This document shows, piece after piece, positions 7,635 through 59,326 of a stretch of DNA of 64,000 nucleotides; position 1 is the first letter of the stretch; each line of letters opens with the position of its first letter. The stretch lies in contig QPGO01000011.1 in assembly GCA_008632985.1 (NCBI GenBank), forward strand, positions 744,001 through 808,000, read 5' to 3'. The position numbers and the translations under genes were made by a program. The notes under the pieces were generated by a model. The model made no database searches. It worked only from the letters and a program-made list of their open reading frames with translations, and was not told where the DNA came from. The DNA is from Psammoneis japonica. Taxonomy: Eukaryota.

Positions 7635-9427
7635 ATGTCGACTGATAACGAAGAACGACCAGAGGAAGACCGTCTGAATGAAGAAGACATGGAGCGTCTC
7701 ATGATGGAGCAGGAAATGCAGCAAGAAGAAGAGGCCCTGCTTGCCGAGCAAGAGCCCGATAATATTCCGTCGATGCTCCCCCAGAAGACGAACAGCAACA
7801 ACAAGTGCCACAGCAACCAAAGCGTCGGAAGTTTCCATACACGAGCGCGTCGTTTGGTGCAGCCGTCGCGTGTGTCTGGTATGCTCTGCGCACACGCGAG
7901 CAGTGGTTCCTCGCCATGGTGTACTTGAGTTCGTCCAAGTGGGCCTATGTCGTCTTGGGCAATGCTGTTATTGCCCTTTGTACGTGGTCCTTTCACTTTA
8001 TTACCACTCTCTTTATTGACGGCCTCCGTGCCAATGAAGCAGAGGGACTTTCGGATTTCTTTCGTTGGAACGTGACCGAGACGTGTCTAGCTCTCACCAT
8101 GTTTCGATCGCAAATTACCGTAAAGACAGTGGCGCTATTTCTAGTGTTGGTTCTCGCCAAATGTCTTCATTGGATTGTAGAAACACGCCGACAGCACTTT
8201 TGCATGACAGAAGAAGCCGTCGTGCCCAACCCTTCGAGAACCAGTTGGCCCGCGATTCAATCACAGTTTGTGGGAATCTTTTTCTTTTTGCAGTTCCTCC
8301 TCATGGCAGACGTGGTTGCCATTGCTCAGTGCGCTCTAGACATAACCAAGAACGGAGCCTCCGTGTCGGTCTTTTTTGGCTTTGAGTCGGCCATTATGTT
8401 TGTCGCCGCCATGAGCAATCTGCTTCTGGCAAGCTTGCATTTTATCGATGGCTTGGTTCATTGGGCTCACGAGCACAGCTTGGCTGGCACGCGTTATCAC
8501 GCCTTGGCACATTCTGCACTACATGCGTGGAAGGATCACAAGGCTACCTTTACGTTTGCTGTTGAAGTGCAAGCGCAGGCTGCCAAGTTTTTCTTTTATA
8601 TCATGTTCTTTGGCATTGTCTTGAGCCAACATGGCATGCCCATTAACCTGTTTCGGGAAGTGTACATGAGTTTTCAGCAGCTACGTCAACGCCTCTTGGC
8701 CTTTGCCAAGTATAGGCGTTTGATGCAGTCCATGAACCGATTCGATTCAGTCGAGAGTGAAGAGGAGCTCGAAGAGGCTGGCCGGGTCTGCATCATTTGT
8801 AGGGATGCCATGACTCTAAGCGACTGCAAAAAGTTGCCGGGGTGTAATCACATCTTTCACAAGTCGTGTCTACGCGAATGGCTGATTCATCAGCAAACCT
8901 GTCCAACCTGCCGTAGTGACATTACGGTCACAGAAGCTCGCGTCCGGCGTGCTGAAGCGGACGCTGCCGCGCAACAACAAGAGCAAGACGCGGCAGAGCA
9001 ACCGCAAGGCGAACAAGGGGAGACGGAACAAGTGGCCGAGCCACAGCAAGCCGATACGCAACAGACGGAGAATGCTACAGAACCTGTCCCGGAAGAAGCA
9101 CCCGCAGCTTCTGCTCCTCCCGCACCAGCAGCAGCCGCCTCCGTATACAGGTCCCCAGAAGAAGACCCTTCCATTCCCAAGTTGTTCTTTCCGTGTCTGT
9201 ACAAGGTATCCGCTACGGATGGTGCCTACATTTTGAAAAAGCAGAGGACCGGAGGAATGGCTGGAAAGCGGAAACTTCCGCACGGTACGGTAGTTCTGGT
9301 CACTTCCATGGAATTGGTGAGAAGTGTGGATTGGAATGGCACGATTTTGAAAGTTCCAGATGGGTATGTCCTCGACGATTCCGTTGAGCGAATTCCGATA
9401 CCACTTCCGTTGAAAGAGTCTAGCTAG
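7635..9427 (+). CDS. HRD1/synoviolin-like ERAD E3 ubiquitin ligase (one apparent 1-bp frameshift near 7768)
   Basis: Multi-TM N-terminal region (ETCLALTMFR, LAKCLHW, FGFES, MPINLFR) and RING-H2 CIICRDAM..KKLPGCNHIFHKSCLREWL..QQTCPTCR. The acidic N-terminus from ATG 7635 joins if one C is added in 'attccgtc'. Confidence 0.88.
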
Positions 9428-14485: not shown

Positions 14486-14556
14486 AATGAGCACGCCGTG
14501 AAGAAGCGACTGCATGCACGCATTGTGCCTGCGATGCTGCGCACACCGCACGGAAC

Positions 14557-14789
14557 AGTCACGACTCAACGTCATTCTGGTCGCATCTCACGACTACAAC
14601 CCAGACTCAGATTTTCTCTTCGAAATAAATAGCTCATCACAAAATCGATTCAAACAGAAGCAACGACATTCGTCATAATTTTTAGACAACAACTTTGAAC
14701 AAGCGTCTGTTTACCTCTGTCGCTGTTCACATTGCTACCAACCTCCGAGGTCTTGTCCATCCTGCCCGCTGCAGGACTGCATCTCGACT
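14557..14789 (+). repeat. 5' LTR (AGT...ACT termini)
   Basis: Aligns without gaps to 21551-21783 at 213/233 identical positions. Confidence 0.95.
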
Positions 14790-14951
14790 GGTTGTGGAGA
14801 CCAACTTGCGTGTTGACGAGAGCTCCTGACCGAGTCATCATCACGGACGCTTTTGGTTTTTGATTTTGAAGCAAACCCGGGAAATAGCTGAGTCTCTCTC
14901 GCTTCTCTCGTCTTCATTCTAACAAGAACCTCCCATGCTGCACTCTCTGTC

Positions 14952-17900
14952 ATGGCCACCATCGACCCGGATGTTCTGGCGAAGGCGTTTGCCGATGCAA
15001 TGGCCGCTGACGCTGCAGCAAACGCTCCTCCGCCTCCAACCAAGCCGTCACGTGGCGGAATTCACCCAACCCACGGGGTTTACATTGGTGGTTCCAAACT
15101 CGATGACAACTGTGAACAATCCAACGACAGAACCCACCGACTCGCCTCTCAGTGCCGTCATCCCAAGGCTCTCGACTCGACAGAACGATCTCTCCGCGAT
15201 CAACAAGCTTCCGCAATGACTTCCAAGTTCAACGGTCGACTTGAGATTTCAGACGGTCCCATCAACAAGCTTGACAAGGACCATTTCGTCAAGACCATTC
15301 GAGATCCAGCAGAAGCCCACGGTCAGCAGACGTTCTGCCATGTCAAGAACAGCGACGACAAGGTTCAACACATCTTCGAACATCTCCACGAGTTTACTGT
15401 GACCGATCTCGTGAATGAATACAAGGTTGGGAAAGCAGCCTCCGATGATGCCAAGCACGACGAGATCAAGCTCGACGATGTCGGGCTCTCTCAGCCACTC
15501 GTTCACTCAAGAATCACTGACACCTTTCTCGAGAAAATCGAGACCAAGTTCAACCATCTCAAGGACCACCAAGACCACCCTGGATCTGTTCCATTCATGA
15601 TGGCTCTCGATGCTTGCAATGCCAGCGCTCCAACGGACATTGAGACAGCCAAGAAGCAGCCAGAAGACCTTGGTTTGGTTGGCCATCCCGGCGAGGATTG
15701 CACGGACTTTGCTGCCGAAGCTCTTCGCATCATGAAAATTGTGCAGACCGACCACACGCTTCCGGCGAACACAAGCTCCAAGCTGCTCCACAAGATCTCC
15801 TCTGTGTCCTCTGAATGCTTCAATCGGAGAGTCCACAACAAGCTTGACGACGTCAAGGCTGTGGAACGCAAGCACCGCCTCAACTGACATCACGTCCAAC
15901 AGTGATTGCAACACGCTCGGACCTGTCGGTGTCATTGCGTGGATTCAGGAGCAACACAATGAACTCGTGAAGGATGGGGAGTGGCCTGCTTTGGTCGCCA
16001 AGCTACCCGAGAGCAATCTTTTGACTACGGACAACCCTGGGAAGACGAAGCACTGTTGTGGTTGCGGTCTCGAGGGGTGCACCAAGAAGACGTGCCCGAA
16101 GTGCAATGCCAAACGCCGAGCAACGATCCTCCTACGAATCTGCCACCTGCAGATGACCCTTCCAAGAAGAAGCGGAGACCCATCGCTGCCTGGTGCATTG
16201 AATTTGACGGAGAAACGAAGAAGGACAAGAATGGCAAAGAACGAAAGTGGTGTGCCACGTGCACGGTGAAGGGTGCCGACAAACCTGGAATCCACCAGAA
16301 GCACTCTACCGCGGAACATGCCGCAGACCACAAGCATCCTCCCAAGGAAACCCCAGCCGGGAATCTGTCTTCCGTTGCTGATCTGGACAGTGGCGTGCCC
16401 ATGGGTCCACCAGCTCAGACCACCAAGGAACCAGAGGGAGACGAGTCCGACCCCAACGAGTTGGTTTTCACGGGAATGTGGTGCGCGGCTACGGATGCCG
16501 TTGCCGACCCGGATTTCTTTTCCGACCCTGTTGCCACTGCAGTTGTTGTTCCTCCGGCTTCTTCGGCCGAGAGGGAGAGCGACACAGTCGTCAGCACTGA
16601 GGTGCTTTGTAACGAAACGAGCCCACCTGTGCTCACCTCAGTCGTGGATCCAGTCGTGTCTCCCATCGTGGTTGAGACTGTCACTCCCGAAGACGCCGAT
16701 GACTTCTGCGAATGCTCCAATGCTTTCTCTACATTTGAAAACGAACCACCGGCTGTTGAGTTGTTTCCGGCCTCGAAGCTGTGCTCCATCAAGCATCCAG
16801 ATGAGTTCTTTGATGCTCCCGCAAATTTGATGGACATGCTGTCAGACGACACAAAGTTAGATCTCATCCTTGAACATGACGCACACTTTGAAGACGCACG
16901 CGACAACTTGCCTCCGTGTGTCACATGTCGTGGCTTCGATTTCTATGATCCAGAGATCCTGGATGCGGATGATTGTCACGAGGACGTCGAAGACGAGCCC
17001 ACTTCGCATCGATCAATCTTGGGACGGGTCAAGCCATTCACATTCTGGCTTGCCGCCATGTTTTGGGAAACGGCACTGCACTTTTGCTTTGCTCCAATCC
17101 CAAGCATCCCTCGAGCTCTACGCCGCCAGGGCAAACTCCCAACCTTGCACGGGTTTCCAGCCTCTTGGATGGTCCCATCCGTTGCAGTTGTGGCATGGTC
17201 AGCAGTTTACGCCGGTCGACAGCCCGAGCATCCATTCTCGAACGTGCCAAGCCGTTTTTCGACCGCCAGCTCTCAAGTCTACCACATTGTGGAAGAGCCA
17301 GATGACCGGATAGTGTTAGATGCGGGGTCACTGTTCGAACATCACAGGATCAAAGGCACGCAAGTGCTCACCGAGTTTGTCGCGCGCCATCCGTCACACG
17401 CACTGAGCACTCGTCTCAAGGCCTGCTGGGAGAGCCTGGAAGTAGCTGAAAGGTCTGACACGACAGACAAATCAGCCTTCTTTGATGCCCATGAGGAACT
17501 GGAACCTCTCGACGACCAGAAGCATTTCTTGGACGCTCTTGAGGACTTCAGCCCAGATTTCTTCCGGTTTGATGAGCTCTGTCTGCCCAATCACATCGTG
17601 GACACTGCTCATTTTCAAGATCCTGTGGAACTGTTGGAGGACGCACGTGTTGGGCCAGTCGTCTACAACACCTCCACCATCCAACCACTCACCGGACAAT
17701 CTCAAGCCGACCTTCTTGCATCCGATCCACAGGCACTCATCGGTCTGTCGGATGAAGCTCTGACGGTCGTCATGGATGCTGGTGCCACGTTAGCTGTTGC
17801 CCCCGATGAAGATGATTTTACGGGGCCTGTGACTGTTCCCAAGAAACCCTTGCAAATCAATGGGATTGCCAACGGTCTTGCCATCCAGGGCACTGGTCCG

Positions 17901-20900
17901 GTTGCATGGGTGTTCACCATGCCGAGTGGCGCTGCCATCCAACTGAACACCATGGCGTGCCACGTCCCTGGAGCCCGTCAACGCCTGCCATCGCCTCAAT
18001 GCCTCTTCAACGAAGAGAAGGGGGTGCGTGGGAAGTGTGAGGGCGATGAAACCACTTTCCGTTTGCACATTGACGGGACAGGCAAGTTGGTCGTGCCACA
18101 TCACCCATCAAGCCACTCACCCATTGCATCGATGACCAAGGGCGCATCTGCCGCTCCACAAGTGAATCTACAAATCCTCAACGAGGAGAATCAAAACCTC
18201 ACGGCAGGCCAAAAGCTTCTTGTCGAAATGCACACCCGTTTTGGCCATTTAAACTTTGGTTGCGTCCAAGCACTTCTCCGCACAGCTCCGTTCCTGTCGA
18301 ACTGTTTCAAGTCCGCAGCAAAGTGTGACCACCCAAGATGCGAGGCATGCGAGCATGCTAAAGGTCACAGACGCTCCCTTGGATCTACTCACAAGTCGAC
18401 AGTCCCTGAACGCGACGGGGCCCTTCGAGCTGACCATCTTCGACCGGGTCAGGCTGTCAGCGTTGATCATTTTGAGTCGCGCCTTTCAGGCCGAACCTTT
18501 GACTCATGTGGCAAAGCCATGTCCAAGCAATTCAAGGGCGGTTGTGTCTTTGTCGACCACGCCTCTGGTTGCATCCAGGTGAGCACCAACTGGGTTTCTC
18601 TGCTGTTGAGACGATGCAAGCGAAGCAAGCGTATGAGAAACATGCTTTGGACCACGGTGTCATCATCCAAGAATTTCTCACCGACAGTGGCACTTTCAAG
18701 GCCAACACTTTTGTGCAACATGTGCGAGATCATGAACAACGTCTCCGTTTTTGTGGAACCAATGCCCATCATCAGAACGGCGTCGCAGAGCGGGGTGTCC
18801 GAAGCATCTCCAACATGGCGAGAGCGATGTTGCTTCATGCATCAATCCACTGGAAAGGGGGAATTGACAGCTCCCCATGGCCCATGGCTGTTTCTCATGC
18901 CACGTGTGTCTGCGCTGTCACCCCAAATTCCAAGGGACATTGCCCAGTGGACATTTTCACCGGTTCGACAGTGCCAAGACACCGTTTGCGAGACATTCAC
19001 ACATGGGGATGTCCAGCGTGCGCACTTGATCCGACCCTCGCTTCCGGAAAGAAACTCCTGCATTGGGAACCTCGCACTCATCATGCTTTGTTCGTGGGAC
19101 TCAGTGCCATCCATTCCAGTGAGGTTCCTTTGGTCCTCAATCTACAAACTGGAAGTGTTGCTCCTCAGCGTCATGTGGTCTTTGACGATCTCTTCACTGC
19201 CGTGCCATCAATGAGAGGGAGACGGATCCACCTGATCACTGGGAGCACCTGTGTCTCAACCAATCGACATGCATCCCTCTGGAGAAGGATCAAGCAGTTC
19301 ATTTGCACAATGAGTGGCTCACCCCTCCAGAGCGTCAACGCAAAGAGCGAGAACTGGCCAGAGCAACACGCATTTGCGGCCATTTTGAGCCCACTCCATC
19401 GATTGCTGTGCCGGATTCACCCACTTCTCGCGATGACGTTGCCGATCGAGTCGCACCTGCGACTCAGCAGCCAATGCCACCAGTCCCACCAGCGACTCAA
19501 ATTCCTGCAGACTCTGCGGACTCTGCGCCAATTCAGCCACCTGAACCTCAAGTCAGTGACAAACTTCCGCCACCCGAAGTGCCGATGGAACCAACAGCTC
19601 CTCCCCCAGTCGAGACACCTCCTGTGACGAATCCAGAGGGAGTGTCAGGGCTGCGACGGTCTTCACGGTCAACCAAGGGACAGCTCAACTCTGCCAAGTT
19701 TGTGGATGAAGTCCACTTCAGTTCCGTCAAGGAAATGCCACTGCCGATCGGACACGAGGCTCAACTGGCTCATCTGGCGACTCTTGAGACAGATTTGGAC
19801 AGTGGCACCATCAACATTGGCGATCCACGAGCCTGCGCAGCTAGCAAGAAACCAAGGACCCTGGTGTGTCTTCATCACACAATCTCTGAAAGGTCCGGAC
19901 GCCGACGAATGGATTGAGTCGATGAAAATTGAAGTCAACGCACTCATGCATCTTCGAGCCTGGAAAGCAGTCGAGCGTCAGCCGCACATGAATGTGCTTC
20001 CAGGCACATGGGCACTGAGCTCAAGAGACTCCCAGATGGAACCCCTCTCAAGTGTGAGGCCCGACACTGCGTCCGCGGTGATTTGCAGAAAGAAGGAGTC
20101 GACTGCTTCAAAACCCACGCGCCGGTTGTGCAATGGTCCAGCGTCCGACTCATGCTCACTGCGGCATTAAAGGAGGGATGGACCACACGTCAGGCAGACC
20201 ACACCACAGCCTTTTGCCAAGCTGATGTCGCCGAGGAAGTTTGTGCAACACCGCCGAAGGGTTTTGCGCCGAGGTCGGGACTCAATGTGGTTCTCAAACT
20301 TTTGAAAGGACCACACGGCCTAAAACAGTCTCCCAAGGGCTTCTGCGAGAAGTTGCGAGCTGGTTTAACCGAGCGCGGATGGGTGCCTTCAACCACAGAC
20401 CCCTGTTTGCATTTCAAAGAGGGCATGATGTGTGTGGTGCACGTCGACGACACCGCATTTGCTGGAGCTTCAGCTGAAGCTCTGGAGGAAGAAATTCACA
20501 AGTTAGGAGTCTCCGACGACGAACATTGCCACGCATTTGAACTTAGAGACGAGGGAGAAGTCGGCAACTTTCTCGGCATCAAGATCGAAAAGCTCTCCGA
20601 GGGTCGATTTCTACTCACTCAACCCGGTCTAATTGACAAGGTCCTGCGCACCGCACAGATGCAGGATTGCAATGGAGCATCTGCTCCAGCTCCACCTGCG
20701 GCCATTGGTGCTGACACGGATGGCCTGCCTTTTGATGAACCCTGTGATTGTCGCTCAGTTGTTGGAATGTTGATGTGCTTGGCAGCGAACAGCCGGCCAG
20801 ACATTGCACATGCCACACATCAAGTGGCTCGATTTTGTTTGCACCCCGAGCGTCCCATGCTGCTGCAGTGAAGCGGACACTCTGGCACCTCAAAGCAACT

Positions 20901-21530
20901 GCTGCTGAAGGTCTCATTCTCAAGCCTGCGCAAGACCATCGAGTTGATTGTTGCGTTGATTCTGACTTCACGGGGTTGTTTGGTGTGGAAGATGGTCAAG
21001 ACCCAGTTTCTGTCAAGTCCAGGACTGGATGCCTCATCTGCTGCACCGGCTGCCCGCTTGTCTGGGTGTCCAAGCTGCGGACTCTTGTGGCATTGTCGAC
21101 TGTGGAAGCGGAATGTGTCACACTTTCTCAAGCCATGCGCGATCTCATCCCCATTCGTGAAGTTCTCAAGGAACTCAACCACCATGCACTCGGAAAGTCT
21201 GACCGCCAAAACCCTGTCACGACTCACTGCAAGGCTTTTGAGCTCGCAAACCAAGGCACTGATGACTCGCCTGTTGAGCAGAATGTCCCACCTGCATCCG
21301 TTGTGTGCGAAGACAACTCCGCGTGCCTCAAGTTCGCACGCATGCCTGAGTTGTCTCCACGAACCAAACACACCGGTGTCCCGCACCACTGGTTTGGGAC
21401 CAAAGTCGAACAATTGGAGATCGACATCCAACCTGTCAGCACTCCAGAGCAACTGGCCGATCAGTTCCCAAGGGGGGCTTGCGGACCGATGCGTTCCGTG
21501 TGGCTGGAAAGGCTCTTGTGGGCTGGTGAG
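14952..21530 (+). pseudogene. Degenerate gag-pol polyprotein of the copia element
   Basis: Spread over ORFs 14952, 15739, 15981, 18506, 19303, 19700, 20008 and 20748. Gag Cys/His motifs (CCGCG..CPKC; WCATC..HSTAEH) and PR, IN, RT and RH motifs are recognisable, with Tyr replaced by His/Cys. Confidence 0.9.
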
Positions 21531-21550
21531 CTCTCTCGGTTGAGAGGGAG

Positions 21551-21783
21551 AGTCACGACTCAACGTCATTCTGGTCGCATCTCACGACTGCAACCCAGAC
21601 TCAGATTTTCTCTTTGAAACAAATGGCTCATCACAAAATCGATTCAAACAGAAGCAACGGCATTTGTCACAATTTTTAGACAACGACTTTGAACAAGCAT
21701 CTGTTTGCCTCTGTCGCCACTCACATTGCTGCCAACCTCCGAGGTCTCATCCATCCCACCCGCTGTGGGACTGCATCTCGACT
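21551..21783 (+). repeat. 3' LTR
   Basis: Preceded by the PPT and followed by the TSD GGAAC. Confidence 0.95.
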
Positions 21784-21883
21784 GGAACGCACAGCCGAAG
21801 ACTGAAAGCGCAATCAGATCCTTCTCGCATCGTCCGTCATCCAGTTGTTGTTTGCATTCTTGAAGCCATGGCACAGTCTAAAC

Positions 21884-22872
21884 ATGGGTGGTTCATCATC
21901 GAAACCTGTCAAGTTCCTTCCCGAGTTTGAGAAGAATCTTCCTTCGCTCGACAGCAAAACGGTCGCCATTGCTGGCTGCACGTCGGGGACAGGTCTCATT
22001 GCCGCAAAAGTGTCAGTGCACAAAGGTGCCAAGAACGTGCTGCTTCTGAACCATCCTTCGGAGCGAGCCGAAAATGCAGAAAAAGAAGTCAAGGCCGAAA
22101 TTACGGACGGTCAGAAAACAACGGTCGAAACAATCCCGTGTGATTTGCAAGACTTTGAATCTGTAAAGAACGCAGCTGCCGAAATCAAGAAGAAATGCAG
22201 CGCTGTCGATGCACTTTGCAACAATGTGGGTGTCATGGCAATGGAAGATGAGGCCACCAAGGATGGACACGATGTGCAGATCCAGACAAATCATCTTTCC
22301 CACTTTCTTCTCACCAAGGAACTCTTTCCTCTTTTGAAGAAAGCTGCAGAATTACGTGGAGAAGCACGTGTCGTTGATCACAGCTCGATGGCTCGCAAAG
22401 GTGGTTTGCTTGAGGCTGAATGCTTTGGCAAGAATGGAGGCAACCTTGGAGGAAACTCAAACAGTCTGCATTCAAGCAAAGGCAAGTGGCAAGATGCCAC
22501 CAGTCCAAGCTCGCCAATGTGGTTTTCACCCTTGCATTGAATGATCATCTTGGAAAGGACAGTGGTGTCAAGGCATTCTGTGCTGCTCCAGGATGCTCTG
22601 TCACTGACCTGCAGACTTCGTCGCAAGGCATGGGAGGAGCAATGTGGACTCGTTTCATGGCTCAGTCCGCAGAAGACGGTGCCATGCCCCTGCTGCAGGT
22701 GTGCCATGGCCAAAATGTCGAAAGCGGGGACTTTTGGGAACCGGCAAACCGAGGAAACATGGTTGGTCCAGCAGTGAAGGTGGAGCTGACCAAGGAATGC
22801 ACAGATGAAGATTCTCGCAAGATGCTCTGGGAAGCATCAGAAGAAGCTTGTGGAGCGTTTTCTTTGGAGTGG
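21884..22872 (+). pseudogene. Short-chain dehydrogenase/reductase (retinol dehydrogenase/WWOX-like), hypermutated
   Basis: MGGSSSK N-terminus, AGCTSGTG Rossmann motif, CDLQDFESV, LCNNVGVM, QTNHLSHFLLT. The catalytic motif reads RCHQSKLAN instead of YxxSK, and the protein has no Tyr. There is a 1-bp shift near 22492 and the probable stop at 22870-22872 reads TGG. Confidence 0.85.
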
Positions 22873-23517
22873 CAATTTGGCATTTTAGAAGCAAGATGCA
22901 GGCAAGAATCTTCTCCCAAAAATGCACGCCGCACTCTGCCTGCGATGATCGCTTTGCGTGGACTTTCTTTGCAAATGCATGCGCAATTGTTTGAAAAGCT
23001 GAGAACACCTTCGGCATCATGTTGATTCCGCAGAGCTCATCTGCAATTCCTGGCCCACAGTCCTGGTGCAACGAACCAGCGCCAGAGAGCCAGCTTGGTT
23101 GTTGGACTCTGCCACATCTCAAAAAAGTTCAGCCTCAGAGAGGAACCTCCGCTTGATCACAGTCGTACCTTCAGCTATTGCTAGCTAGCTTAGCTCTGGA
23201 TGCCGGTACGACGATGCGAGCGATAGAAAAGATGATGGAGTTAGATGCGGCACCGGCAGTCGTGTAGTGAGTAGACCTCAGTTTGAACGTCCGTCCGTCA
23301 GCCCCATTATATGCCGTAGATCGCAACCGCCAAAACAGGATAGACTAATCTGCACCCTCCAACATCGCCTCAACGTCGCGTCGCGATCTCGTCGCATATA
23401 ACGCTGTCAAAGCAGCAGCCAAAGCACATCAACCATCCGTTCGGTGGCATATGCAGAGACAAAGCCATAAAATCAGCTCTTAATCTGTGTATTTCTTAGT
23501 TGGTCTAAAAAATTGGC

Positions 23518-25626: not shown

Positions 25627-26364
25627 GCGACCATACAATGATTGATATATCCAGCCGTTTAATGGTGTAAGTTAAGTAAACCAGAAACTAGGGTGTGCTA
25701 TGCTGCTCTTCGGGATAATGCCTCGTGGATTGAGAGTACCTGTGGATAAAAGGGACCCTACTCTCTTTTAGACTAAAACCTGTATGCGGTATCATACGGT
25801 ACGTACTACGTACGGTGTTCAGAAGGGAAAATAAAAAATAATCAAAAATGATGACCTCAGACATGTGTGTCGACGATTGTGTGATTACGCAAGATGCTCC
25901 TTGCAAGCATGTACACACACATGCGGCAGGGCCCTGGTCATAAAATGTCCGTTGAAGTCATGTGATGTGCAGTTCTTTAACGACATCAAATTGTGTGCTT
26001 CGACATTCTACATTAAGACATGAAAACGTCTGTTGAGATTGGTGCATCCGTTGATGCATCTCACACTTCAGTCCAAATCTCTTCCGCCACAGATGGTTCG
26101 TCACATTTTTTTGGGAACCGCTCGAGTTTTTATGCACTCATGGTTGTGCATCTCCACTCTGAACTCCCTGGCCAGCCAGACCACAGAAATGACGGTCGAC
26201 GAAGAAGAGCGAAAACGCAGAAACAGAGAGTGCCAAAAGACATTCAGGAAGAAACAAAAACGGAAAGCAAAAAAGAAGGAAGACAACCAAGCACGGTGCC
26301 CTCGGGTCAAAGAAGAAAAACAACTTCAAAACATCATGGCGACGATGCCATCAATGACTTCGAC

Positions 26365-26760
26365 GCACAATCCTTGGCGAATGGCACTGCCACTCAACCG
26401 ACTCCGGCAACGCACGTGTTGATGCCAGCGGCCGGCAGGGCAGCAACGGTGGACATTGATCAGCAGGTGCGTTTGCTTCTTGATGAGAACAAAGAGCTCA
26501 ACATTTGGGCAAAGCAATTCTGTGACAAACAAGCTGACAACATTTGGAACTTTGTCACTTCGATGCAATCCTTGGCGAATGGCACCGCCACTCAACCAAC
26601 TCCGGCAATGTGCGTGTTGATGCCAGTGGCCGGCAGGGTGGCAATGGTGGATGTTGATCAGCAGGTGCTTTTGCTTCTTGATGAGAATGAAGAGCTTGAC
26701 AGTTGGGCAAAGCTAATTTTTGACAAACAAGCTGACAACGTTCGGGACTTTGTCAAAAGT
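26365..26760 (+). repeat. 198-bp (66-codon) tandem duplication in a relic ORF
   Basis: QSLANGTATQPTPA..VLMP.AGR.A.VD.DQQV.LLLDEN.EL..WAK...DKQADN occurs twice in ORF 26020..26991. Confidence 0.85.
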
Positions 26761-29570
26761 TCCCAAGAGCAACGTGGTGAGGTGATTGCTTGTTTCAGAG
26801 AGAAGGCACAAAATGGCACCATCTGCATGATGGCTCCAAGCAAAAAGAGAAAGAATGAAGACCACATGGACGTGACCATGAATCAAGGATTGGCAGCCTG
26901 CAAAACGGCACCCACTCAGAGAGATCAAATCAAGAATGGCGCTTCACAAAACCATGATCTGTCGTTGATCAAAAAAGCATTGGATCTTTGAAAGCAATCT
27001 GATTCTCGCAATTTCAAAAACCATCCATGAGGCTGTCCATTTGCTTTGAACAGTGGCGTGTCCGGTCCTCCTTGTGTCCTTGGAGTGCCGTGAGACCACC
27101 CAGCACTGATGGACGCAACAGGTGCTTCTCCTCCCTTTGGCGTGAGCCGTTGGCAAACGCACTTGGTCACTCGTGGTGCTTCTCATGCCAAGGGTGCAAT
27201 TCCAAGCATTGACGACTCTTGAGTGCTTTCCAGTGTTGGGAGTGGATGCATTCCCAGCAAGAAGGAGAAGCACATGGCTGGCAGGTGGATTGAAGAAGAC
27301 GCAGACCACCATTCAGTGCCTCGAGTAGAAAATCATTGTCTGGAGCCCGACCCTCATCTCTGGACATGTTTGGTTTTGCACCGACACCTGTTGAAGACAG
27401 GAAACACCCATGTCTCACTGACGGCGAGATTGCCGAGTTTGATCAAAGACTCGAAAACCACTTTGTCCCCAAAGCCAACAGGCCAGTGGAACAGAAAACA
27501 ATCTTGGGTCTTGGATGGCACAATGAAGAGGAAGCCATCAAACTCATGGTTCGATTGAACAGTGAGAGCTGTCAAGGCCACGTGCTCTTGCATTCTAAAT
27601 GCACAGAGCTTTGTGACTTTCTGAATGAGATGGGGAAATGTCTTTGAGGATTGATCATCAAACAGCTCTTGTTGCATCAACACACAAGTCAACGACTGTT
27701 TTGTCACCTTCTCCTTAGAGTCGACCTTGTGTCTGACTCATGCAGCAACCGACAATGTTCTAAAAGTTCCCAAATGCCAGCATTGTCAATTGTTGAGCAT
27801 CCTGCTGTCTCTGTGAGTTTTCTGTGTCCATTGTTTTGAGACCATTTTCACAGTCCACACTGCATGCATTGAAGGTTTCATTCAAACAGACTTCGCAACA
27901 AACTGGAGCACGTGTCTCATGTCAAGGCACATTGCATTGAAGGAAACATGCTCTTGTGCGCATGGAGCGATGGGGTTGCTTTGTGAAACTCTCCTTTGGT
28001 CATGGCAAGGTTGCCGCTAAATGCAACGATTCTTGTTTCAAGGCATCTTGACGGATGCACTCTTTTAGATGTTGCAAGATTGTCCATGGGTGATTCTAAT
28101 GTGATTGCTGTCTTTGTCTGAGCAGCACTGAAGTGTTGTTCTCATTTCTTGGAGATGAGAGGTTGGACAAACACCCACACACAATGGACAAACGGGGTTC
28201 AAAACAATGTCAACATTCATGGTGTGTGAAATCCGAGAGACCGTCGTGAACAAAAACATCAAATCCGCAGAGTGATGAAGATCGGATCATGAGACTGCCA
28301 TCTTCATCACAGACTCTGCCAAGACACTTCGGATGGCAAGAAGGAAATTCCATTTTGTCAGCTTTGGTGTCACCAGGTTCCGACAGTCTCAATGGTTGGC
28401 ACATCAATTTTGAAAAGAGACGGCTTGGCCCTGGCCACCGCAAAAAGCAAAAGTCAACTCACTGCACACTTCTTCCGTCTGCACACTGAGGCAACACTGG
28501 GCCAGAGCCGCTTCTTCGTGTGACCTCACCATCTCTGTGCTCACACCTGCTCGTTTCCATCTTAAAAAAGCAAACGCATGTTGAACATTGAACCAGGAGA
28601 TGAGTCACAGAGAAAAGAGCAGAGCAGTGCAAGCACATTTGTGACTTGCGACCTGCGTGGTTGATGGCACTGGAACAAAAACTTGCATTTAGCTGACCCC
28701 CATTGTCTCTTCAATGCTTTGCAGAAGAACCTGCAAGCCACTGTGATTTGTTGTTCTCAATGAAATGCTCTCCTCTCATGCACCCATTGTCGTCTTGTCA
28801 CCTTCAAGAAAGGTTGAAGCATCGGGTGGAAGCCATGTTTGCACTGGTCAGAGTTCCAGAGATTTTTTGGCCTCAACTGCATTGAAAATTCTGTTTTGAT
28901 TGCAACTTGCCACAGCACGCCATTGTCACATTGCAACTTGTCATCTTGCTCTCTTTCAGACATTGCATTGTCAAGCCAAGCCCCTGTGACATCATCTTTG
29001 CTGTTGTCCTTGTGACATTTGTCACTTTGCTCTTTGCCCTGTTTTTCAGAGACAGCATGTCCAGCTTTTCATTTGGTCTGACCAATTGCAAGGATGCTCT
29101 TTCTTTGAATCTTCCATTGCAATGGCTCCAACAAAGATGAGCCAGTGAAATGCCCGGGCATTCACAAGCTTTGAGCAATCAAATTGGGGAGCATGGCCAC
29201 AAAAGCCACGTTGTTCCACACTCTCTTGGGCGGTGCTGCATCCCATTTGACCAGATTCTCTTCGTGGTTGGTGCTTTCTTGGTTCCCGGCAGAAGCACAA
29301 AAAGGTGCAATGCTGCAAACAAGGCATTGGACGCAGATTGAATGGGACCACCAATGTGAGTTACAAAGACTGCCTTTGTTTCATTGAGATGATCAAAAGT
29401 GTGCACAAGCAGTGAAATCAGCAGCTCAGTTCAAGTTGTTTGAGAACAAGCAAATGACCTCAAATGACCTCATCCTGCACAAATTGCCACAGATTTGTCC
29501 TGCGCTGATGCTGCATGTGCTCCCTTTGAGCAATTGCATGGGTTCTGGTGTGTTTCCACCGCATGACGTC

Positions 29571-31425
29571 GTGGTCTTCGAGCAAGTTGGCATCTGACAT
29601 CGGCTCACATTCCCTCACTCGCGTGTTGCTTGTCAGTTGTGAAAGGCATTGAAAGCACCCTGTTTGTGGTTGCAACAGCATCTGCTGGTGGGAGAATGGT
29701 GGCCAAGCCTTTCCAGAGGTGCACAGCACATTTTTTTTGCTGGCAGATCCTGTGCACACCAGCTGGTGTGTCCACAGCCTTCTTGTTGCAGCAAGCTGCA
29801 ACACGCCAGTTCCTTCCTTTTGGCATGTGCTGTTGCCATGAGTGGCTCCAGTTTGAGGATGAAACATCTTGTGTTGGCTGAGTTGCAGCCATTGCCAGAA
29901 GTCATCAGCACTGTGCAATCTTGTGATGGTGCTGTGGCTCCAGCGCGGCAACATCATGGTGTGAGTGGCCAAGAGCCGGGGGGGGGCAGTCTTGCTTGCT
30001 GGTTGCTCACAAGTGCGCACTTTGTGGGAAGAAGCCAATGTTGCTGACACATGCTCAGCAAGCAAAGCCACATTGTGCAGGTGGTGTGGAAAGGCACAAA
30101 CTCCAAAAGAGACTGAGGTTGCCAGCAGCACACGCGAGCCTCTGGGAGGCAGCAAGTGCAGCCAGTGGACTGATGGCAAATGAAGAGGCAAAAATGGATG
30201 AGACTGCAGCAAAGGAGGTGCTGAGAGACTGGCTGCACCTTTCAAATTGGTTGGACAGAGAGTCAACTTGCCACCACCTCTGGCTGCATGGCATGGCTCT
30301 TGGCTTTGCCACCAACCATCACTCCCAAAGATTCCCAGAATTTCCATGCCTGCTGTTGCACCTCAGCAGTGCTCTGTGAGACCCAACATCGTGGTCTTTG
30401 AGCAAGTTGGCATCTGACATCGGCTCACGTTCCCTCACTTGCGTGTTGCTCATCAGTTGTGAAAGGCATTGAAAGCACCTTGTTTGTGGTTGCAACAGCA
30501 TCTGCTGGTGGGAGAATGGTGGCCAAGCCTTTCCAGAGGTGCACAGCACATTTTTTTTGCTGGCAGATCCTGTGCACACCAGCTGGTGTGTCCACAGCCT
30601 TCTTGTTGCAGCAAGCTGTGCAACATGCCAGTTCCTTTTGGCATGTGCAGTTGCCATGAGTGGCTCCAGTTTGAGGATGAAACATCTTGTGTTGGCTGAG
30701 TTGCAGCCATTGCCAGAAGTCATCAGTGCTGTGCAATCTTGTGATGGTGCTGTGGCTCCAGCACAGCAACATCATGGTGTGAGCAGTGATCCTGTGCACA
30801 CCAGCTGACACGCCGGACTCCACAGCCTTCTCATTGCAGCAAGCTGCAACACGCCAGTTCCTTCCTTTTGGCATGTGCTGTTGCCATGAGTGGCTCCAGT
30901 TTGAGGACAAAACATCTTGTGGTGTTGGCTGAGTTGCAGCCATTGCCAGAAGTCATCAGCACTGTGCAATCTTGTGATGGTGCTGTGGCTCCAGCACGGC
31001 AACATCATGGTGTGAGTGGCCAAGAGACAGGGGGCAGTCTTGCTGGTTGCTCACAAGTGCGCACTTTGTGGGAAGAACCCAATGTTGCTGACACATGCTC
31101 AGCAAGCAAAGCCACATTTTGCAGGTGGTGTGGAAAGGCACAAACTCCAAAAGAGACTCAGGTTGCCAGCAGCACACATGAGCCTCTAGGAGGCTGCAAG
31201 TGCAGCCATTGGACTGATGGCAAATGAAGAGGCAAAAATGGATGAGACTGCAGCAAAGGAGGTGCTGAGAGACTGGCTGCACCTTTCAAATTGGTTGGAC
31301 AGAGAGCCAACTTGCCACCACCTCTGGCTGCATGCATGGCTCTTGGCTTTGCCACCAACCATCACTCCCAAAGATTCCCAGAATTTCTGTGCCTGCTGTT
31401 GCACCTCAGCAGTGCTCTGTGAGAC
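29571..31425 (+). repeat. Nested tandem duplication: ~820-bp unit, a truncated second copy and a 5'-truncated third copy
   Basis: The unit starting GTGGTCTT(C/T)GAGCAAGTTGG occurs at 29571 and 30391. Copy 2 breaks at ~30785 and restarts at GATCCTGTGCACACCAGCTG (equivalent to 29746), running to ~31425. Confidence 0.9.
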
Positions 31426-33154
31426 CCACCAGACCTCGAAACACGCACTCCATTGGGTGCTGCACAACCCTCCCCAGCAAAGTGTGGCAGTTCTTGACAT
31501 GGTTGTCACTTGCACCCAATCAACCCAACAAAAAAGACATCAGCAAAACACTGCTGCTGTGAAAGAAGGAGTCGTACTCCTCTCTCACAGAGCTGATGCT
31601 GCAGTGTCAGCTTGCAAAAACTTGTGAGATGCTGCCACTGCATGACTTGCAACAAACAAAATTTGCTGCCAGCTTGTGTGATGCTGTTGATGAACAGCCC
31701 CACAGCTCGCCATTCTGGCACATGCACAAGATGCAATTTTTGTGGCTGGGTTTTCTGCATGTCATGCCAGGAACTTTCTTGGCCTTGTTGTCCAAATGGA
31801 AAACATGCAAAGCTTGCTGCAGCTCCCATGTGCTGGATGTCAGCTCACAAGAGGGCACAAACCTGTGCATTTTTTGCAAAGCACATCACCAAGGAGGTGG
31901 GCACCAGCGGTCATTTGGCAAGCCTCAAACACCCAGCCCAACATGCTCAGCTGGAGGTCAGCTGTGCCAGGCATTGCCAGTGTGAAAGTCCTTGCCTTTC
32001 CTTGGCCAATGACATTGCCAGCTGCTGCTCCTTTGTCCATCATCCAGGCTCTGAGATTGCACACAGACCGGCCCATGTCCTGCTGTGAGCAGTCTTGCTT
32101 GGCACAGGACCCCTCTGTTTTCCTTGGCACATCATCAACGGCATTGCTTGGAGGGCAGTTTGTTGGCATTTGGGAGCCACCACAGCTGGAGAGAGCAAGC
32201 CCTTGTGAGATCCACAATTGTGGCATCTCATGCCCACCCCTTGTCAGTTTGGACAGCTTGCTGGGAGCAAATGGCTTGGACAACGGGCCTCCTGGCCCTG
32301 GCTGGCTGGACGGCTTGATGGTGACACAATTTGATGACATCAATGGGCAAAAAGATTGGGTGCTGTGGCTTTCCTGTTGCACAGTGTTCAGCAGCTACCT
32401 CAGCCACCCACACAACAATCAGATTTGCCACTCTCCTGAAAATCTTTGGGCTCATGAATGACAATGCTGCAATGATGGCCAGCCACATGAGAACAAATGC
32501 TCAGTTGGGAGGTGTGTGCACTGTGGGCAGGCAGTGCCAACGCATGTGATGAAAAAGTTCACAAGCCAGACTGACTTCACAGCACCAAGGTTGTCAAGTC
32601 ACATTGCTGCCACAACAATGTGACCTTGCTTGTGAGCCCACACCACAAAATTCTCATGTGTTGGGCAGACCACACTGAAGGGATGGGCAACAAAAATTGC
32701 AGCTCAGTGGTGCATCACAAGCCTCAAGTGCGCTAAAAAGGAGAGTGCCCCACCCCCGCCACACAGCTGGGGTGGCAAACCAACTGCAAAGTGGAGTGGG
32801 ATGGCACAGGGAGTGGCTGCAACAACTTGTCACCTGCTCTGATGCCAGTGTCCCATCCACCTCATGTCACAGTCACCTCCAGCACACCAGCAGCCATCTG
32901 CCAACCAATTGCTTTTGACTGATCTGGTGACTTGTCTGTGCTGCTTTTCCACATGCACCAGTGGAGCATGCTTTTTTGATGATTGCCATCACCTGAGCCC
33001 CACACTGCCCAGCACAACTGCCAGCTCATCAGGCAGGCAGATGTGTGCAACATGCACCCACTGTGACTGAGACAGTTGCCCACACCACAGCCCACAAAAA
33101 GATGTGCAGGACAACACAAGTCCACAAACAAACACCAGGATTTTCTGCACAGAA

Positions 33155-35140
33155 GGCTGGGTGCACCATCTCTCAAGCCTGTGGACAAGCCTTGTTGTGT
33201 GGCATTGTCCCCCAACATGAGCATCAACTTTGGACCACAGCAAACTGACCCTGCTGTGCTGCAACCCTGAGGAGAAGAGGAGAGTCTGCACCTCTTGCTT
33301 TCAGAGGACATGCAGTTTGGTGAAGCACTCACACACCTCATCACTCAGGTCTTCTGACCCACGTTGCTGGCGTGCCCCTGTTTCATCAAGGTTGACACTG
33401 TGCAGATGGCGGGCCATGCCACATTTGTGCGCAAGCACCAGATGTGCCAAAACTCAAAGTCAACTCCTCCTCAAGCACTGTGTGGTGCACAACAACAACC
33501 CTTCACAGCATTCTCTCTGGTGCTGCTGGTGCAGGCAGAACTGAGTCATCTCTCTGTGTTTCTGTGCTGTCAAAGAAACTGTCATCAACACTCCAAGGTT
33601 GAGCTGCAGCTTGGCTGGAGAAGCCATGATGGCCAGCATCAAAGAAGCAGGCTGTTGCAGCTGACAGCTTTTGTCAGGTCAACAACTTTCTAAATGTGAT
33701 CACGCACAGATGGACATGAAGTTGGTGAGTTGCAGCCACACTGCACGACCCAAAGAGAAAGGATCATGCACATCACATTTTTTGTCTGCTGCAAAAGGCA
33801 ACAACAAACTCTTGAGAGGTGGCTGCTGCTCCATTTTTCAAGCATTTCAATTTTGCCAAGCTTTGCAATGCTGAGAGGGAGAAGATTTGATTGCTGGAGA
33901 CTGAGCTGTGGTGGCCCAACACTGCAAGGCAAAGTGGGCCCCATGCTGTTGGCTGTGTGGCGGCATTTGGGTGCCTGACAAAAAGACATGAAACCCCATG
34001 AGCTTTGCATGGATTTCTGTGGCATTTACATGAAAAACACAGCAAGATCTCACAGAACAAACCTGCTCACAAACACACATTTGTGTTGTTCACCAATGAC
34101 TTTTGCAAGGAATTCTGTGACACTTGTGAAAAAAAAGACATGTGGAATCTTGTTGAGTCCACACATTTGCACAAATGTGCATGTTGTCAACCAGCAAACT
34201 CAGACATTTGTGTGAGATCTCAACAAAATGAGAGGAGTTCACAGAATTGTGTGCGGAACACTGCAAATCACCAATTTATCTTGCACTCTGTCAGCCTGTT
34301 CATGCTGGTCTTCTTGTGCATGTCACAGAGGAGTGCACCCTCAACACTCCATTTTGAGGAGAGATGCAAAAAAGAAGGCTGTGTGAAGAGCACACTCTGT
34401 GCAGCTGACACTCTCTTTACAGTCTGCAGCAACAAAGAGAGTGTGTCAGCATGTTTTTCACAACTGTGCTGACATTTTGTCACATGTGAGCTGGCAATGA
34501 AGTGTGGCATGGTTTGTGGTTGTCAAGCAGAGTGTCAACAGAGAGAAAGTGAAAAAATGTTCACATTTTTGGTGCTGCCGGTGGTCATTGCTGGCAGCTG
34601 CAGCACACCTGTTGCAATTGAGACAGCAGCCCTTTCTGTGGTCTGCAGCCAACAAAATGATGCCACACCTGGCATGAGAACCACACAAGTCTGCAAGCAA
34701 ACACCGGAAGGTTTTTTTGCACACACATTGAAACAACACACGCAGTCAAAAGGCCATCTAGATGGCACTCTGGCATGGATGGTGGGTGCTCCATCTCCCA
34801 AAGCTGTGGACAAGCCCCGCTGTGGCATCACATCCCAATGTGAGCATCAACTTTGGACCACAACAACAGACAGCAGCTCCTGCTGGCTGCAACCCTGAGG
34901 AGAGGAGAGGCTGTGCCTGTTGCCTTCAGAAGCTGCTCAATTTTGTCAAGCACTTGTGCACCCCATCACTCAGGTGGTCCATGCTGACACATGTTGCAGG
35001 CCTGTTCATTTCATCAAGATGGCCATCTCACCACATTTGGGTGCAAAACAAGCAGCAGCCCAACGGATGTGCAAAAACTTGGAGTGTTCTTTGTGCAGAA
35101 CTGTGTGGGGAGCACAACAGCCTCTCACAGCACTCACTCT
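33155..35140 (+). repeat. Diverged dispersed duplication (~33155-33520 vs ~34780-35140)
   Basis: Shared blocks CCATCTC..AAGC.TGTGGACAAGCC, GAGCATCAACTTTGGACCAC and GCTGCAACCCTGAGGAG. Confidence 0.7.
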
Positions 35141-35674
35141 GATGCCGCCAGTGGGCAGAGCCAAGCCAGATCACCTTTCAACACACCAGTCACGCAGTCC
35201 CTGGGCCCTTGGTTGTCCAGCCTGCTCACCAAGAGCATCTTCAGACTGTTGAGAGTGGCCGCACACTGGACTTTTCCCTTTTGTTGCTCTCCCAGGATTG
35301 CATGTCTCAAGCCACAGCTCAGGGTTCAAAGGACCACAGGACAAAGGCAAGACATTTTGGCTCCATGTTGTGGTGGGGCTCCACTCAACATTTTGGACTG
35401 GATTTGACTGCCAGTTTTTGCAGCCTTTTTCAGTGGAGTGACACTGAACTTTCCAAGTTGAAAGCCGCAGCTTGCCTGGAAGATGTGTCAGCCATCACAA
35501 AGCAGGAAGCAGGTGCCACTGCCACAGCTGACAGCTTGTCAAGACCAACTTTTTCCACTTGATTGCACACAGACAGGCACTGCATCATGTTGATGAGTTG
35601 CTTGTGGTCACATTCCAACATGGCCAAAAAAGAAGAAAAACAGAGCTGCCCGCATGGAAGCATTCTTTGCAGAG

Positions 35675-36441
35675 AATGGAGTGGCGCACTTTCCAAAAGT
35701 GCGGTGCGCAGCACTCGTCCACATGCGGACAAATGGCACCGGACTCTGCGCACCGAACACAACAAGATTTCACTCATTGCGACAACAGCAGGGAAGTCTG
35801 TCATGTCGGGCACATCGACGTTGTTGCGCTTCTTGCGCATAAAAAATACATCAATCCACTAACATTACGCATGCGAATTGGATGGGATACAGGATCTTGC
35901 AAATCTGGTGAAAAAATCGTCCCCCCGTGCTTCACCGTGTTAAAAACCCCGTGCCAATCCTCCACAATGAATGAAAATCCAACTTTTCGTCAAAATCTGT
36001 TGTCGCGTGCTCACTTCAGTGCTTCATCAATGCGATCGACCGAGAAAACACAAAATACACCCCAAAAAAAGTGAAAAACAACAGTCCCACCGCGGCCAAA
36101 ACCTCTACGTGATTTCAGTGCCAAGTTGTACGTGCCAAAAACCCTTCGTCACCAATGGCTCAACCAGCTCCCAAAACAACTCGATCATTGTCATTTGACA
36201 TTGATATCTCATTTCTTATCATATCAGTTGTTGTCTCGGTGCATCATAACCTCCCAGTCCGCTGTCGTTGTTGTGTGCGTCCATTGCCGATGTCGCGGCG
36301 TCGTTGCCGTGATGTTTGTGTGTGAAGTGTGAAGTGAATTCAAATAAACATCTCTACGAATTTTGTAGTACATTTTTACGTACGTATATTTTGTGTAGAT
36401 TAGGTATGCGCACCGAATTTTTGAAAGTACGCCACTCCATT
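35675..36441. mobile_element. Candidate MITE-like element (imperfect ~36-bp terminal inverted repeats)
   Basis: 35675-35710 AATGGAGTGGCGCACTTTCCAAAAGTGCGGTGCGCA vs the reverse complement of 36407-36441 AATGGAGTGGCGTACTTTCAAAAATTCGGTGCGCA; GAG flanks both sides. Confidence 0.45.
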
Positions 36442-38853: not shown

Positions 38854-38949
38854 GATGTCATTGCTTCGTCGACGGTTTGGAGGTTTAGGTTGCAGTACGA
38901 AAAAAAAGAAAATTCGCACCGGCGCCAAGCGCGAAGAGCGCGCCGCAAT

Positions 38950-40380: not shown

Positions 40381-40577
40381 CAAGTAAGTGCACGCGAACG
40401 AAGGCAGATTCAGCGACACTGCAGACGGATCCTGCGTCTGCGTGCGTGCGTGGATCTTGATGCCCTCACAATGATGGTGTTCAACGTTGTCGCTGTGATG
40501 CAAAGCCAAGCACAGATCTAAACGCAAGCATACCGCCTGATCCTTCTCATACGAACACTTTTCTTTAACTCTGTACA

Positions 40578-59290: not shown

Positions 59291-59326
59291 CAACGCTAGA
59301 CGAAACGGCAATTCAGTGTCAACACG

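Follow-up and report, generated by a model that had tools for sequence, protein, structure and literature searches.

We describe here a tract of near-complete TpA loss in the genome of the diatom Psammoneis japonica. It lies within a 64-kb stretch of contig QPGO01000011.1 (assembly GCA_008632985.1, positions 744,001 to 808,000), called the window below, and covers a Ty1/copia long terminal repeat (LTR) retrotransposon together with the host short-chain dehydrogenase (SDR) gene next to it. We consider it probable that element and gene were hypermutated from TpA to CpA or TpG in the chromosome, after the element had inserted, likely by adenine deamination in a domain targeted through chromatin or small RNA, in a process that may be of one kind with the TpA hypermutation of the alga Bigelowiella natans (Mettrop et al., bioRxiv 10.64898/2026.01.13.699255; here and below according to the accessible text of that preprint).

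Dinucleotide observed/expected ratios were taken in 1-kb windows over 63,847 called bases, and tract limits were set by segmentation. In the 1-kb windows of 15001-23000 the TpA ratio is 0.04-0.18, against ~0.4-0.75 (about 0.5) outside, CpA and TpG rise to 1.3-1.6, and CpG stands at 0.64-0.93. The segmented tract, 14751-23150, has 43 TpA (ratio 0.10) where the outside density of 37.7 TA/kb predicts ~317 (Poisson P ~2e-83); its CpG, CpA and TpG ratios are 0.78, 1.37 and 1.46. Both edges are abrupt, with TA every ~5 bp until 14481 on the left, and on the right a TA at 22886 followed by those at 23166, 23176, 23182 and on. A first-pass annotation of this DNA had described TpA as nearly absent and CpG as plentiful over ~8.7 kb between TA-rich flanks. 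The ratios of ~0.10 and 0.78 bear this out, and the limits it gave, 14487 and 23165, are exact to the base, the next TA outward lying at 14481 and 23166.

The tract is one of six such blocks (Table 1), which in sum take up 24,910 of the 63,847 called bases, or 39% of the window, and hold 80 TpA, with 1468 outside them. The other five blocks have TpA ratios of 0.04-0.14, CpG of 0.22-0.51 and CpA/TpG of 1.5-1.9. These five, the mostly spared 5' LTR and the host origin of the last 1.4 kb of the tract go beyond what the first pass had reported.

The retrotransposon is identified as Ty1/copia by its LTRs, 5-bp target-site duplication, polypurine tract, RVT_2 match and gag-integrase-reverse transcriptase (RT)-RNase H order. 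Pfam families gag_pre-integrase, retroviral SH3-like domain and RVT_2 are found on it. A full-length relative aligns over four successive frames, so that at least three frame changes separate them, and the element is degenerate. Its closest named relative by protein search is from Fragilaria crotonensis (60% identity). None of the 240 proteins listed by two word-based searches is more than 63% identical to the element, and the source organism's own copies are therefore not in that protein database. The RT open reading frame (ORF; 19933-20871) and the RNase H ORF (20748-21617) contain no Tyr at all, as the first pass had seen, and 2 of 1031 aligned pol residues are Tyr.

The direction of change is seen in four pol segments aligned with 25-75 relatives, where a column was taken as conserved if at least 70% of relatives share the residue. 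Unchanged residues occupy 433 of the 544 conserved columns, yet none of the 21 conserved Tyr columns (Fisher P 6e-16), which now read Cys (10), His (9) or Phe (2); with conservation set at 50%, Tyr is kept at 0 of 29 columns. The 111 differences at conserved columns comprise 24 TA>TG, 16 TA>CA and 5 other A>G/T>C changes, 13 of CpG type, 28 transversions and 25 multi-step changes, the transversions being expected from the ~60% identity to relatives. The substitution spectrum by dinucleotide context is thus TpA-enriched, as the first pass had anticipated: 40 of the 45 A>G/T>C changes stand in TpA context and one at ApA. Single-step changes at conserved codons include no other G>A/C>T, and ApA, with a ratio of 1.0-1.4 in 1-kb windows, shows no depletion.

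The same direction had been read from altered copia motifs, and 11 of the 12 readings hold. YVDD has become HVDD (CAC at 20440; Y in 100% of 75 relatives) and LYGLKQ has become PHGLKQ (CCA at 20311, CAC at 20314). Likewise, EEVY>EEVC, Y..LMYL>C..LMCL, PDIAYA>PDIAHA, YVD.D>CVDSD, SRTGY>SRTGC, EAEY>EAEC, YEDN>CEDN and RLLSPQ>RLPSPQ stand against the relatives. DPCLY>DPCLH is sound within the family, since other copies in a public sequencing run, X1, read T at 20410 (TAT, Tyr), the relatives having Phe there. The exception is RTKHI>RTKHT, put down to ATA>ACA: the codon is ACC, and the change is T>C in an ATC context, not at TpA.

A native lack of Tyr or TA does not account for these changes. Relatives have a median Tyr content of 3.0% (120 proteins), and none of the 240 proteins listed by the word-based searches is Tyr-free, the lowest having 1.36%. 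All 80 metagenome loci of related copia have a whole-locus TA ratio of at least 0.40, although one of the two search patterns that found them contained Tyr and so was biased against mutated copies; the copia family is thus not natively TA-free. Native composition, as a TA-avoiding family or foreign DNA, would fit the already low background TpA of this genome (~0.5), and the loss of the catalytic Tyr from both RT and SDR argues further against it. Pol-eta-type mutagenesis at WA sites, which the first pass had listed as a candidate, is contradicted by the intact ApA and the single ApA change among 45. We give neither of these explanations any real credence.

The two products are near-balanced, with 24 TG and 16 CA at conserved codons (binomial P 0.27) and 702 TG and 822 CA in the tract. 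From the presence of both outcomes it had been argued that both strands are hit. Both do occur, but little can be built on this: TpA reads the same on the two strands, and a single chemistry acting on either of them will therefore yield TG as well as CA. Nor can the balance of the two products separate A-directed from T-directed chemistry. The strand asymmetry (TG-CA)/(TG+CA) is weak, at -0.08 for the tract and between -0.07 and +0.17 for the remaining blocks, and was set aside as too faint a signal to serve as a clue to a transcription-coupled mechanism.

The two LTRs of a retrotransposon are identical at integration. Over the 232 bp compared, this pair shows 16 difference events and no transversion. 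Six are TA in the 5' LTR against CA/TG in the 3' LTR, four are CG against CA/TG, four are adjacent CA/TG doubles and two are other transitions. With just two ordinary differences in 232 bp, the TpA mutation rate would be at least two orders of magnitude above the ordinary rate. The first 184 bp of the 5' LTR (14557-14740) keep seven TpA, the background density, and the homologous part of the 3' LTR has one; the mutated-looking part of the 5' LTR is its last ~50 bp alone. In the 70 bp from the left tract edge to the 5' LTR there are 0 TA and 16 CA/TG, so that the spared segment resembles an island surrounded by mutated DNA. Either the shielding of an open promoter or gene conversion with an unmutated copy as donor would be compatible with it.

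The mutated domain does not end with the element. Past the target-site duplication, the host flank 21789-23165 has five TA in 1377 bp (ratio 0.059), and its read depth of 62-68 in run X1 (outer flanks 55-63) marks it as unique DNA. The element itself is covered at 3000-6500, which against ~60 at unique DNA puts the copia family at roughly 50-100 copies. The element ends before the ATG at 21884, placing the insertion ~96 bp upstream of the SDR gene. Reading frames of this gene lack Tyr, the frame changes between ~22400 and 22490, and the catalytic Tyr of its YxxxK motif is Cys (CHQSKLAN, against YSQSKLAN of PDB 3rd5_A). Matching adh_short, but with its catalytic Tyr lost and its reading frame changed, it is a dead gene. 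Taken together, the TA asymmetry of the LTRs and the mutated single-copy flank place the mutation in the chromosome, after insertion. What was affected is a sharply bounded domain and not simply the repeat. An A>G (T>C) mutator specific for TpA and acting on chromosomal repeat DNA, as the first pass proposed, therefore stands as to its specificity and its regional, chromosomal action; its target is not simply a repeat, for a host gene lies inside the domain and most of one LTR outside it. We also considered a transcription unit that starts in the 5' LTR and reads through to the SDR terminator. It fits the spared U3, but two observations weaken it and led us to reject it: the 70 bp upstream of the LTR are free of TA, and the B. 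natans target is transcriptionally silent according to the accessible preprint text.

Table 1. Positions in the window of the TpA-depleted blocks, the parts of the copia element and the genes discussed
Feature	Positions	Strand	Remarks
Hypermutated TpA-depleted tract	14487..23165	.	TA obs/exp (observed/expected) ~0.10, CA/TG 1.4-1.5, CpG 0.78
Target-site duplication GGAAC, left copy	14552..14556	+	
5' LTR	14557..14789	+	233 bp, AGT...ACT
Gag/protease/integrase N-terminal part	14892..19214	+	degenerate Ty1/copia (CoDi-like); ORFs 14892-15887 and 15963-19214; gag_pre-integrase match
Integrase C-terminal part, other frame	18581..19216	+	frameshift near 18581
Reverse transcriptase	20017..20853	+	RVT_2 E 3.8e-27; HVDD instead of YVDD; without Tyr
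RNase H, yet another frame	20841..21518	+	conserved Tyr now Cys or His
Polypurine tract GAGAGGGAG	21542..21550	+	adjoins 3' LTR
3' LTR	21551..21783	+	233 bp
Target-site duplication GGAAC, right copy	21784..21788	+	perfect 5 bp
Single-copy host short-chain dehydrogenase gene	21884..23025	+	adh_short, E 5e-20; ATG 21884, stop 23023-23025
Second, older block	26016..35839	.	TA 0.04, CpG 0.27, CA/TG 1.8-1.9; without recognisable domain
Third block	38628..40500	.	TA 0.07, CpG 0.51
Fourth block	47035..47786	.	TA 0.14, CpG 0.34
Fifth block	51398..53434	.	TA 0.06, CpG 0.23
Sixth block	57273..59296	.	TA 0.07, CpG 0.22
Hrd1/synoviolin gene	7763..9427		best named matches diatom: Seminavis 49%; Cylindrotheca, Nitzschia, Pseudo-nitzschia, Fistulifera, Epithemia, Phaeodactylum 43-46%; none close

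One public run, X1 (Logan contigs), contains the locus; no RNA run was listed for it, and the two sister runs, X2 and X3, gave almost no matching sequence. When the bases were re-read in it, a contig of 1214 bp had no difference from 22037-23250 and one of 226 bp had a single difference from 21756-21981, at 21879. Other copies of the element in X1 differ from the window copy at 294 transition places (77 A>G, 78 T>C, 67 C>T, 72 G>A) and 46 transversion places. The per-site look took in 40 of these 340 places as listed. Eight of them make up four adjacent TG<>CA doubles; at 13 the window has TG/CA where other copies have CG; other copies keep TA at three and the window keeps it at two. Such doubles would be compatible with copies that were mutated independently of one another, starting from TA or CG. 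Position 21879 itself is unique DNA in the mutated host flank, with T in the window (CTAA) and C in the sole X1 contig (CCAA), possibly a TA/CA allele or a recent event.

An artefact of sequencing or assembly, such as base-calling errors on modified DNA, is scarcely believable in view of these contigs. Modified bases, too, can be confined to a region and a context, as this pattern is, and X1 is possibly the assembly's own sample; but the tract also has frameshifts, CpG decay and coherent Tyr>His/Cys changes, and the N gap in the scaffold hints at an assembly scaffolded from reads.

The TpA that survive point to a context preference. Over all six blocks, ATA/TAT is the context of 9 of 80 survivors; it accounts for 1166 of 2279 TpA in diatom-like copia loci that are unmutated (P 2e-13), and for 708 of 1468 (~48%) in the window background. 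CTAA is the most over-represented context among the survivors. Stop codons have gone with the TpA. The + strand of the tract (8.4 kb) has 10 TAA and 11 TAG, and a 14-kb control has 93 and 97. Since TAA and TAG are nearly gone, long ORFs overlap on both strands: 45 ORFs of at least 100 aa overlap 13000-25000, mostly in the tract and many across both strands, with TGA as nearly the sole stop. GC content is 0.534 in the tract versus 0.488. The tract, the youngest block, has lost nearly all of its TpA but keeps CpG at 0.78 (0.22-0.51 in the others). In these shared domains TpA is thus removed much faster than CpG decays. This upholds the earlier argument that decay of 5-methylcytosine (5mC) at CpG cannot by itself explain the pattern.

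We therefore favour a model of domain-wide editing, several steps of which go beyond the footprint. A Ty1/copia retrotransposon inserted ~96 bp upstream of the SDR gene in the diatom nuclear genome, and later, in the chromosome, nearly every TpA of 14487-23165 turned into CpA or TpG, on both strands about equally. This may be the same kind of process as the TpA-only hypermutation of B. natans, as far as the accessible preprint describes it. As for the chemistry, an enzyme would most likely deaminate the adenine of TpA in DNA to inosine, which is read as G, and do so preferentially in ATA/TAT. Targeting may proceed from a silenced, CpG-methylated chromatin domain or a small-RNA-marked unit, not from DNA homology, and would leave the 5' LTR protected in its promoter part. 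The effect would be a permanent missense inactivation of the element without new stop codons, with collateral loss of the neighbouring gene. A defence function and a deaminase are what we infer from the footprint.

Several points weigh against this reading. The evidence is a footprint in one 64-kb window, not a real-time observation, and run X1 may be the assembly's own sample and so not fully independent. The codon classification takes the TpA route first when several ancestral codons are possible, a mild bias. Gene conversion from an unmutated copy would likewise yield the spared part of the 5' LTR. The ATA/TAT preference is drawn from 80 survivors, some of which may be new mutations, and CpG methylation of the blocks is deduced only from their CpG loss. 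Finally, A-directed and T-directed chemistry leave identical footprints.

This last point gives room to a thymine-directed version of the same regional process. In it, the T of TpA would be modified or excised, either as 5-hydroxymethyluracil made by a TET/JBP-type enzyme or by a glycosylase with error-prone refill, and read as C. As TpA is palindromic, T>C on one strand is A>G on the other, and the near-symmetric products (24 TG and 16 CA; 702 and 822) are just as expected. The 5-hydroxymethyluracil of dinoflagellate DNA is, moreover, enriched at TpA. However, we know of no thymine-directed mutator of this kind that gives clean T>C transitions, and the authors of the B. natans preprint, in its accessible text, favour adenine deamination with a putative ADAT2-like candidate; we regard the thymine route as unlikely. 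Targeting could also depend on homology, as in fungal repeat-induced point mutation (RIP), with repeats recognised by pairing and leakage into the flanks. RIP does leak into adjacent unique DNA, and the element has ~50-100 copies by depth. Yet 184 bp of the 5' LTR were spared though repeated in cis and across copies, mutation is as complete in 1.4 kb of unique DNA as in the element, and the right edge is abrupt rather than graded. The main B. natans target is single copy as well, by the accessible preprint text, and homology-dependent targeting seems to us distinctly unlikely.

ADAR-like A-to-I editing of the retrotransposon RNA, or deamination of its cDNA, before integration and fixed by retrotransposition, would give clustered A>G with a 5' U/T preference on a retroelement. 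ADAR prefers a 3' G, whereas the survivors here point to a 3' T / 5' A preference (ATA/TAT). Both TG and CA appear on the sense strand (24 and 16), the LTRs now differ at TA sites, and single-copy host DNA past the target-site duplication is equally mutated; the changes are neither sense-only, LTR-identical nor confined to the element. Because of the LTR asymmetry and the mutated flank, editing of RNA or cDNA before integration is contradicted, and we hold it to be very improbable.

Chromosomal hypermutation after insertion, the reading we prefer, has its nearest counterpart in B. natans, and the first-pass statement that no such system had been described no longer stands. In mutation-accumulation lines of that chlorarachniophyte, the mutation rate of two integrated viral regions is ~1000-fold that of the remaining genome, and A>G/T>C makes up 230 of the 231 mutations there, all 230 lying on TpA (bioRxiv 10.64898/2026.01.13.699255, accessible text, for this and the following statements on B. 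natans). The targets are integrated nucleocytoplasmic large DNA virus (NCLDV) and virophage DNA, the main one being single copy and transcriptionally silent. The genome has 124 TpA-depleted, CpA+TpG-enriched clusters, RT and DDE Pfam families are enriched among TpA-depleted coding sequences, and an ADAT2-like protein is put forward as the putative enzyme. Both systems share near-exclusive A>G/T>C on TpA, regional action on foreign or selfish DNA, and the possibility of a single-copy target. Ten consecutive 1-kb windows (26001-35001, second block) pass the preprint's cluster cut-offs; the tract has Rho TpA of 0.2 or less in eight consecutive windows, yet its CpA+TpG is below the species-specific B. 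natans cut-off of 1.52.

The two also differ. The host here is a diatom (Stramenopiles) instead of a chlorarachniophyte (Rhizaria), and the target is an LTR retrotransposon with a host gene. Depletion is near saturation, 0.04-0.10 against a Rho of 0.45 for B. natans NCLDV, and the process is known here from its footprint alone. Four features present here were not found in the accessible preprint text: abrupt edges, a 5' LTR that is partly spared, a preference for ATA/TAT, and CpG loss in the same places. That text makes no mention of diatom, stramenopile, flanking bases or boundaries. Full-text literature searches, as far as the sources were accessible, gave no report of TpA hypermutation in diatoms, nor did term look-ups in Maumus 2009 and Krasovec 2019 (Phaeodactylum mutation accumulation). 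New in this case are thus the lineage, a 5' LTR spared in its promoter part, extension into a host gene, the ATA/TAT preference and the co-located CpG decay.

Like fungal RIP, the process makes regional, dinucleotide-specific transitions in chromosomal transposons, on both strands and presumably tied to cytosine methylation, and it spills into neighbour genes. Unlike RIP, which makes TpA from CpA, it destroys TpA, raises GC and removes TAA and TAG instead of creating them; an enzyme resembling a C5-methyltransferase, moreover, cannot do A>G. RIP is marked by TpA/ApT above 0.89 and (CpA+TpG)/(ApC+GpT) below 1.03. The tract has 0.12 and 1.48, a mirror image in keeping with the first-pass remark that RIP runs the opposite way. 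With ADAR, TadA/ADAT2 and the TadA-derived adenine base editors it would share deamination of A read as G and a preference for a 5' U/T neighbour, which the accessible preprint text also states. Those enzymes act on RNA, or on DNA if engineered or in isolated reports; in the window it is the genomic DNA itself that was altered on the spot, and not in repeats alone. APOBEC3 and AID likewise produce deaminase-type hypermutation against retroelements in clustered, context-specific transitions. Theirs, however, is C>U (G>A) and not A>G, and APOBEC3 works on cDNA before integration, whereas the LTRs and flank here speak for a time after it. 5mC decay co-occurs in the blocks (CpG 0.22-0.78) and also gives CA/TG, but CpG decay cannot remove TpA.

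A wider trace may exist among other copia proteins. An exhaustive HMMER search with the window's RT against 1.84 billion cluster representatives listed 150 proteins, 144 of them beyond the relatives already collected. Among the 144 listed, four are nearly Tyr-free: P0391 (0 Tyr in 381 aa), P0456 (1 in 2061), P0496 (2 in 611) and P0429 (7 in 919). Judged as they are from protein rather than DNA, they have His or Cys at 4 of 4, 10 of 10, 5 of 6 and 8 of 9 conserved Tyr columns, respectively, and keep 78-87% of other conserved residues. P0400 is partly affected, with Cys at three of nine such columns, and five control proteins have kept Tyr or have Phe or other residues there, never His or Cys. 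At no more than 41% identity to the query RT, the near-Tyr-free proteins belong to other copia lineages. Scans of viral_contigs and genome_contigs for the source of these four and P0400 had no match, and the Atlas placed them in generic copia clusters. P0106, P0109 and P0400 are copia polyproteins 61-64% identical to one another, with Tyr at 0.84-1.68%, and may be a partly mutated family in another organism.

It is tempting to speculate, though we lean somewhat against it for now, that DNA editing specific to TpA is a genome-defence pathway conserved in the stramenopile-alveolate-Rhizaria (SAR) group, present in Rhizaria and diatoms and no peculiarity of Bigelowiella. It would be aimed at a chromatin or small-RNA domain, spare the active promoter, prefer ATA/TAT, far outpace 5mC decay and be able to kill neighbour genes. 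If this were true, the near-Tyr-free copia polyproteins (four clear and one partial among the 144 listed) would be its wider trace, and the enzyme, which may be a natural DNA adenine deaminase, would come to light on comparing the gene sets of diatoms and chlorarachniophytes.

Before one 2026 preprint, judged by what is accessible of it, no naturally occurring A:T>G:C mutator with a defined sequence context was known to act on chromosomal DNA. A saturated footprint in a diatom means that the process is not confined to one alga and that its targets include retrotransposons, beyond integrated viruses. It provides a second, distant lineage for a comparative search for the enzyme, and a natural DNA adenine deaminase would be of interest to base editing. 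Domain edges, the spared LTR promoter and the link with CpG decay offer clues to targeting. There are practical consequences too: in hypermutated tracts gene callers would over-predict on long false ORFs, local GC is raised and neighbour genes can be silently killed. Further, dating by LTR divergence would go badly wrong, as 14 of the 16 LTR differences come from the TpA process or CpG decay.

The remaining blocks offer few clues to their origin. When 105 ORFs of at least 90 aa from them were compared with Pfam, no credible family emerged (four ORFs matched weakly, E 0.003-0.008). A tblastn search of the window with ten copia polyproteins matched solely in 15000-21500, and an Atlas look-up of ORF 26017-26988 in the second block gave no usable match. 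That block has tandem repeats at 26357-26755 and 29566-31431, with ~200-bp units and array copies offset by ~820 and 1040 bp at 87-95% identity, whose differences are mainly CG against CA/TG and adjacent CA/TG doubles. An assembly gap of 153 N at 56639-56791 directly precedes the sixth block and may affect its left edge. A 650-bp patch at 5201-5850, with a TA ratio of 0.19, CpG of 0.35 and ORFs without domain match, is a miniature of the block signature. In ordinary genes outside the blocks, the TpA ratio of ~0.4-0.75 could conceivably be either a lineage norm or a low-level leak of the mutator.

Both tract edges (14340-14486 and 23166-23200) adjoin TA-rich low-complexity DNA of CTAGCT, CTACTC and GAGTAG units, and 6 of the 12 CTAGCT sites of the window fall in such DNA at the tract edges. 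GTAC occurs at both edges. We tried reading it as the duplicated target site of some larger insert, but terminal repeats were not seen, and it probably reflects chance or some intergenic feature. Directly before the tract, at 13400-13888 (+), lies a gene of the NTPase_I-T (DUF84) family (E 1e-23), which we take to be a family of inosine/xanthosine triphosphatases; its place beside a putative A>I tract is probably coincidence.

The CoDi label used in Table 1, for diatom copia elements, presumably follows Maumus et al. 2009. The window also encodes HA and WRKY19-type zinc-finger domains, both of which are expanded in diatoms. At 1-4912, unrelated to the tract, two adjacent genes on opposite strands carry VTC and DUF202 domains, which we take to be polyphosphate-polymerase-like.

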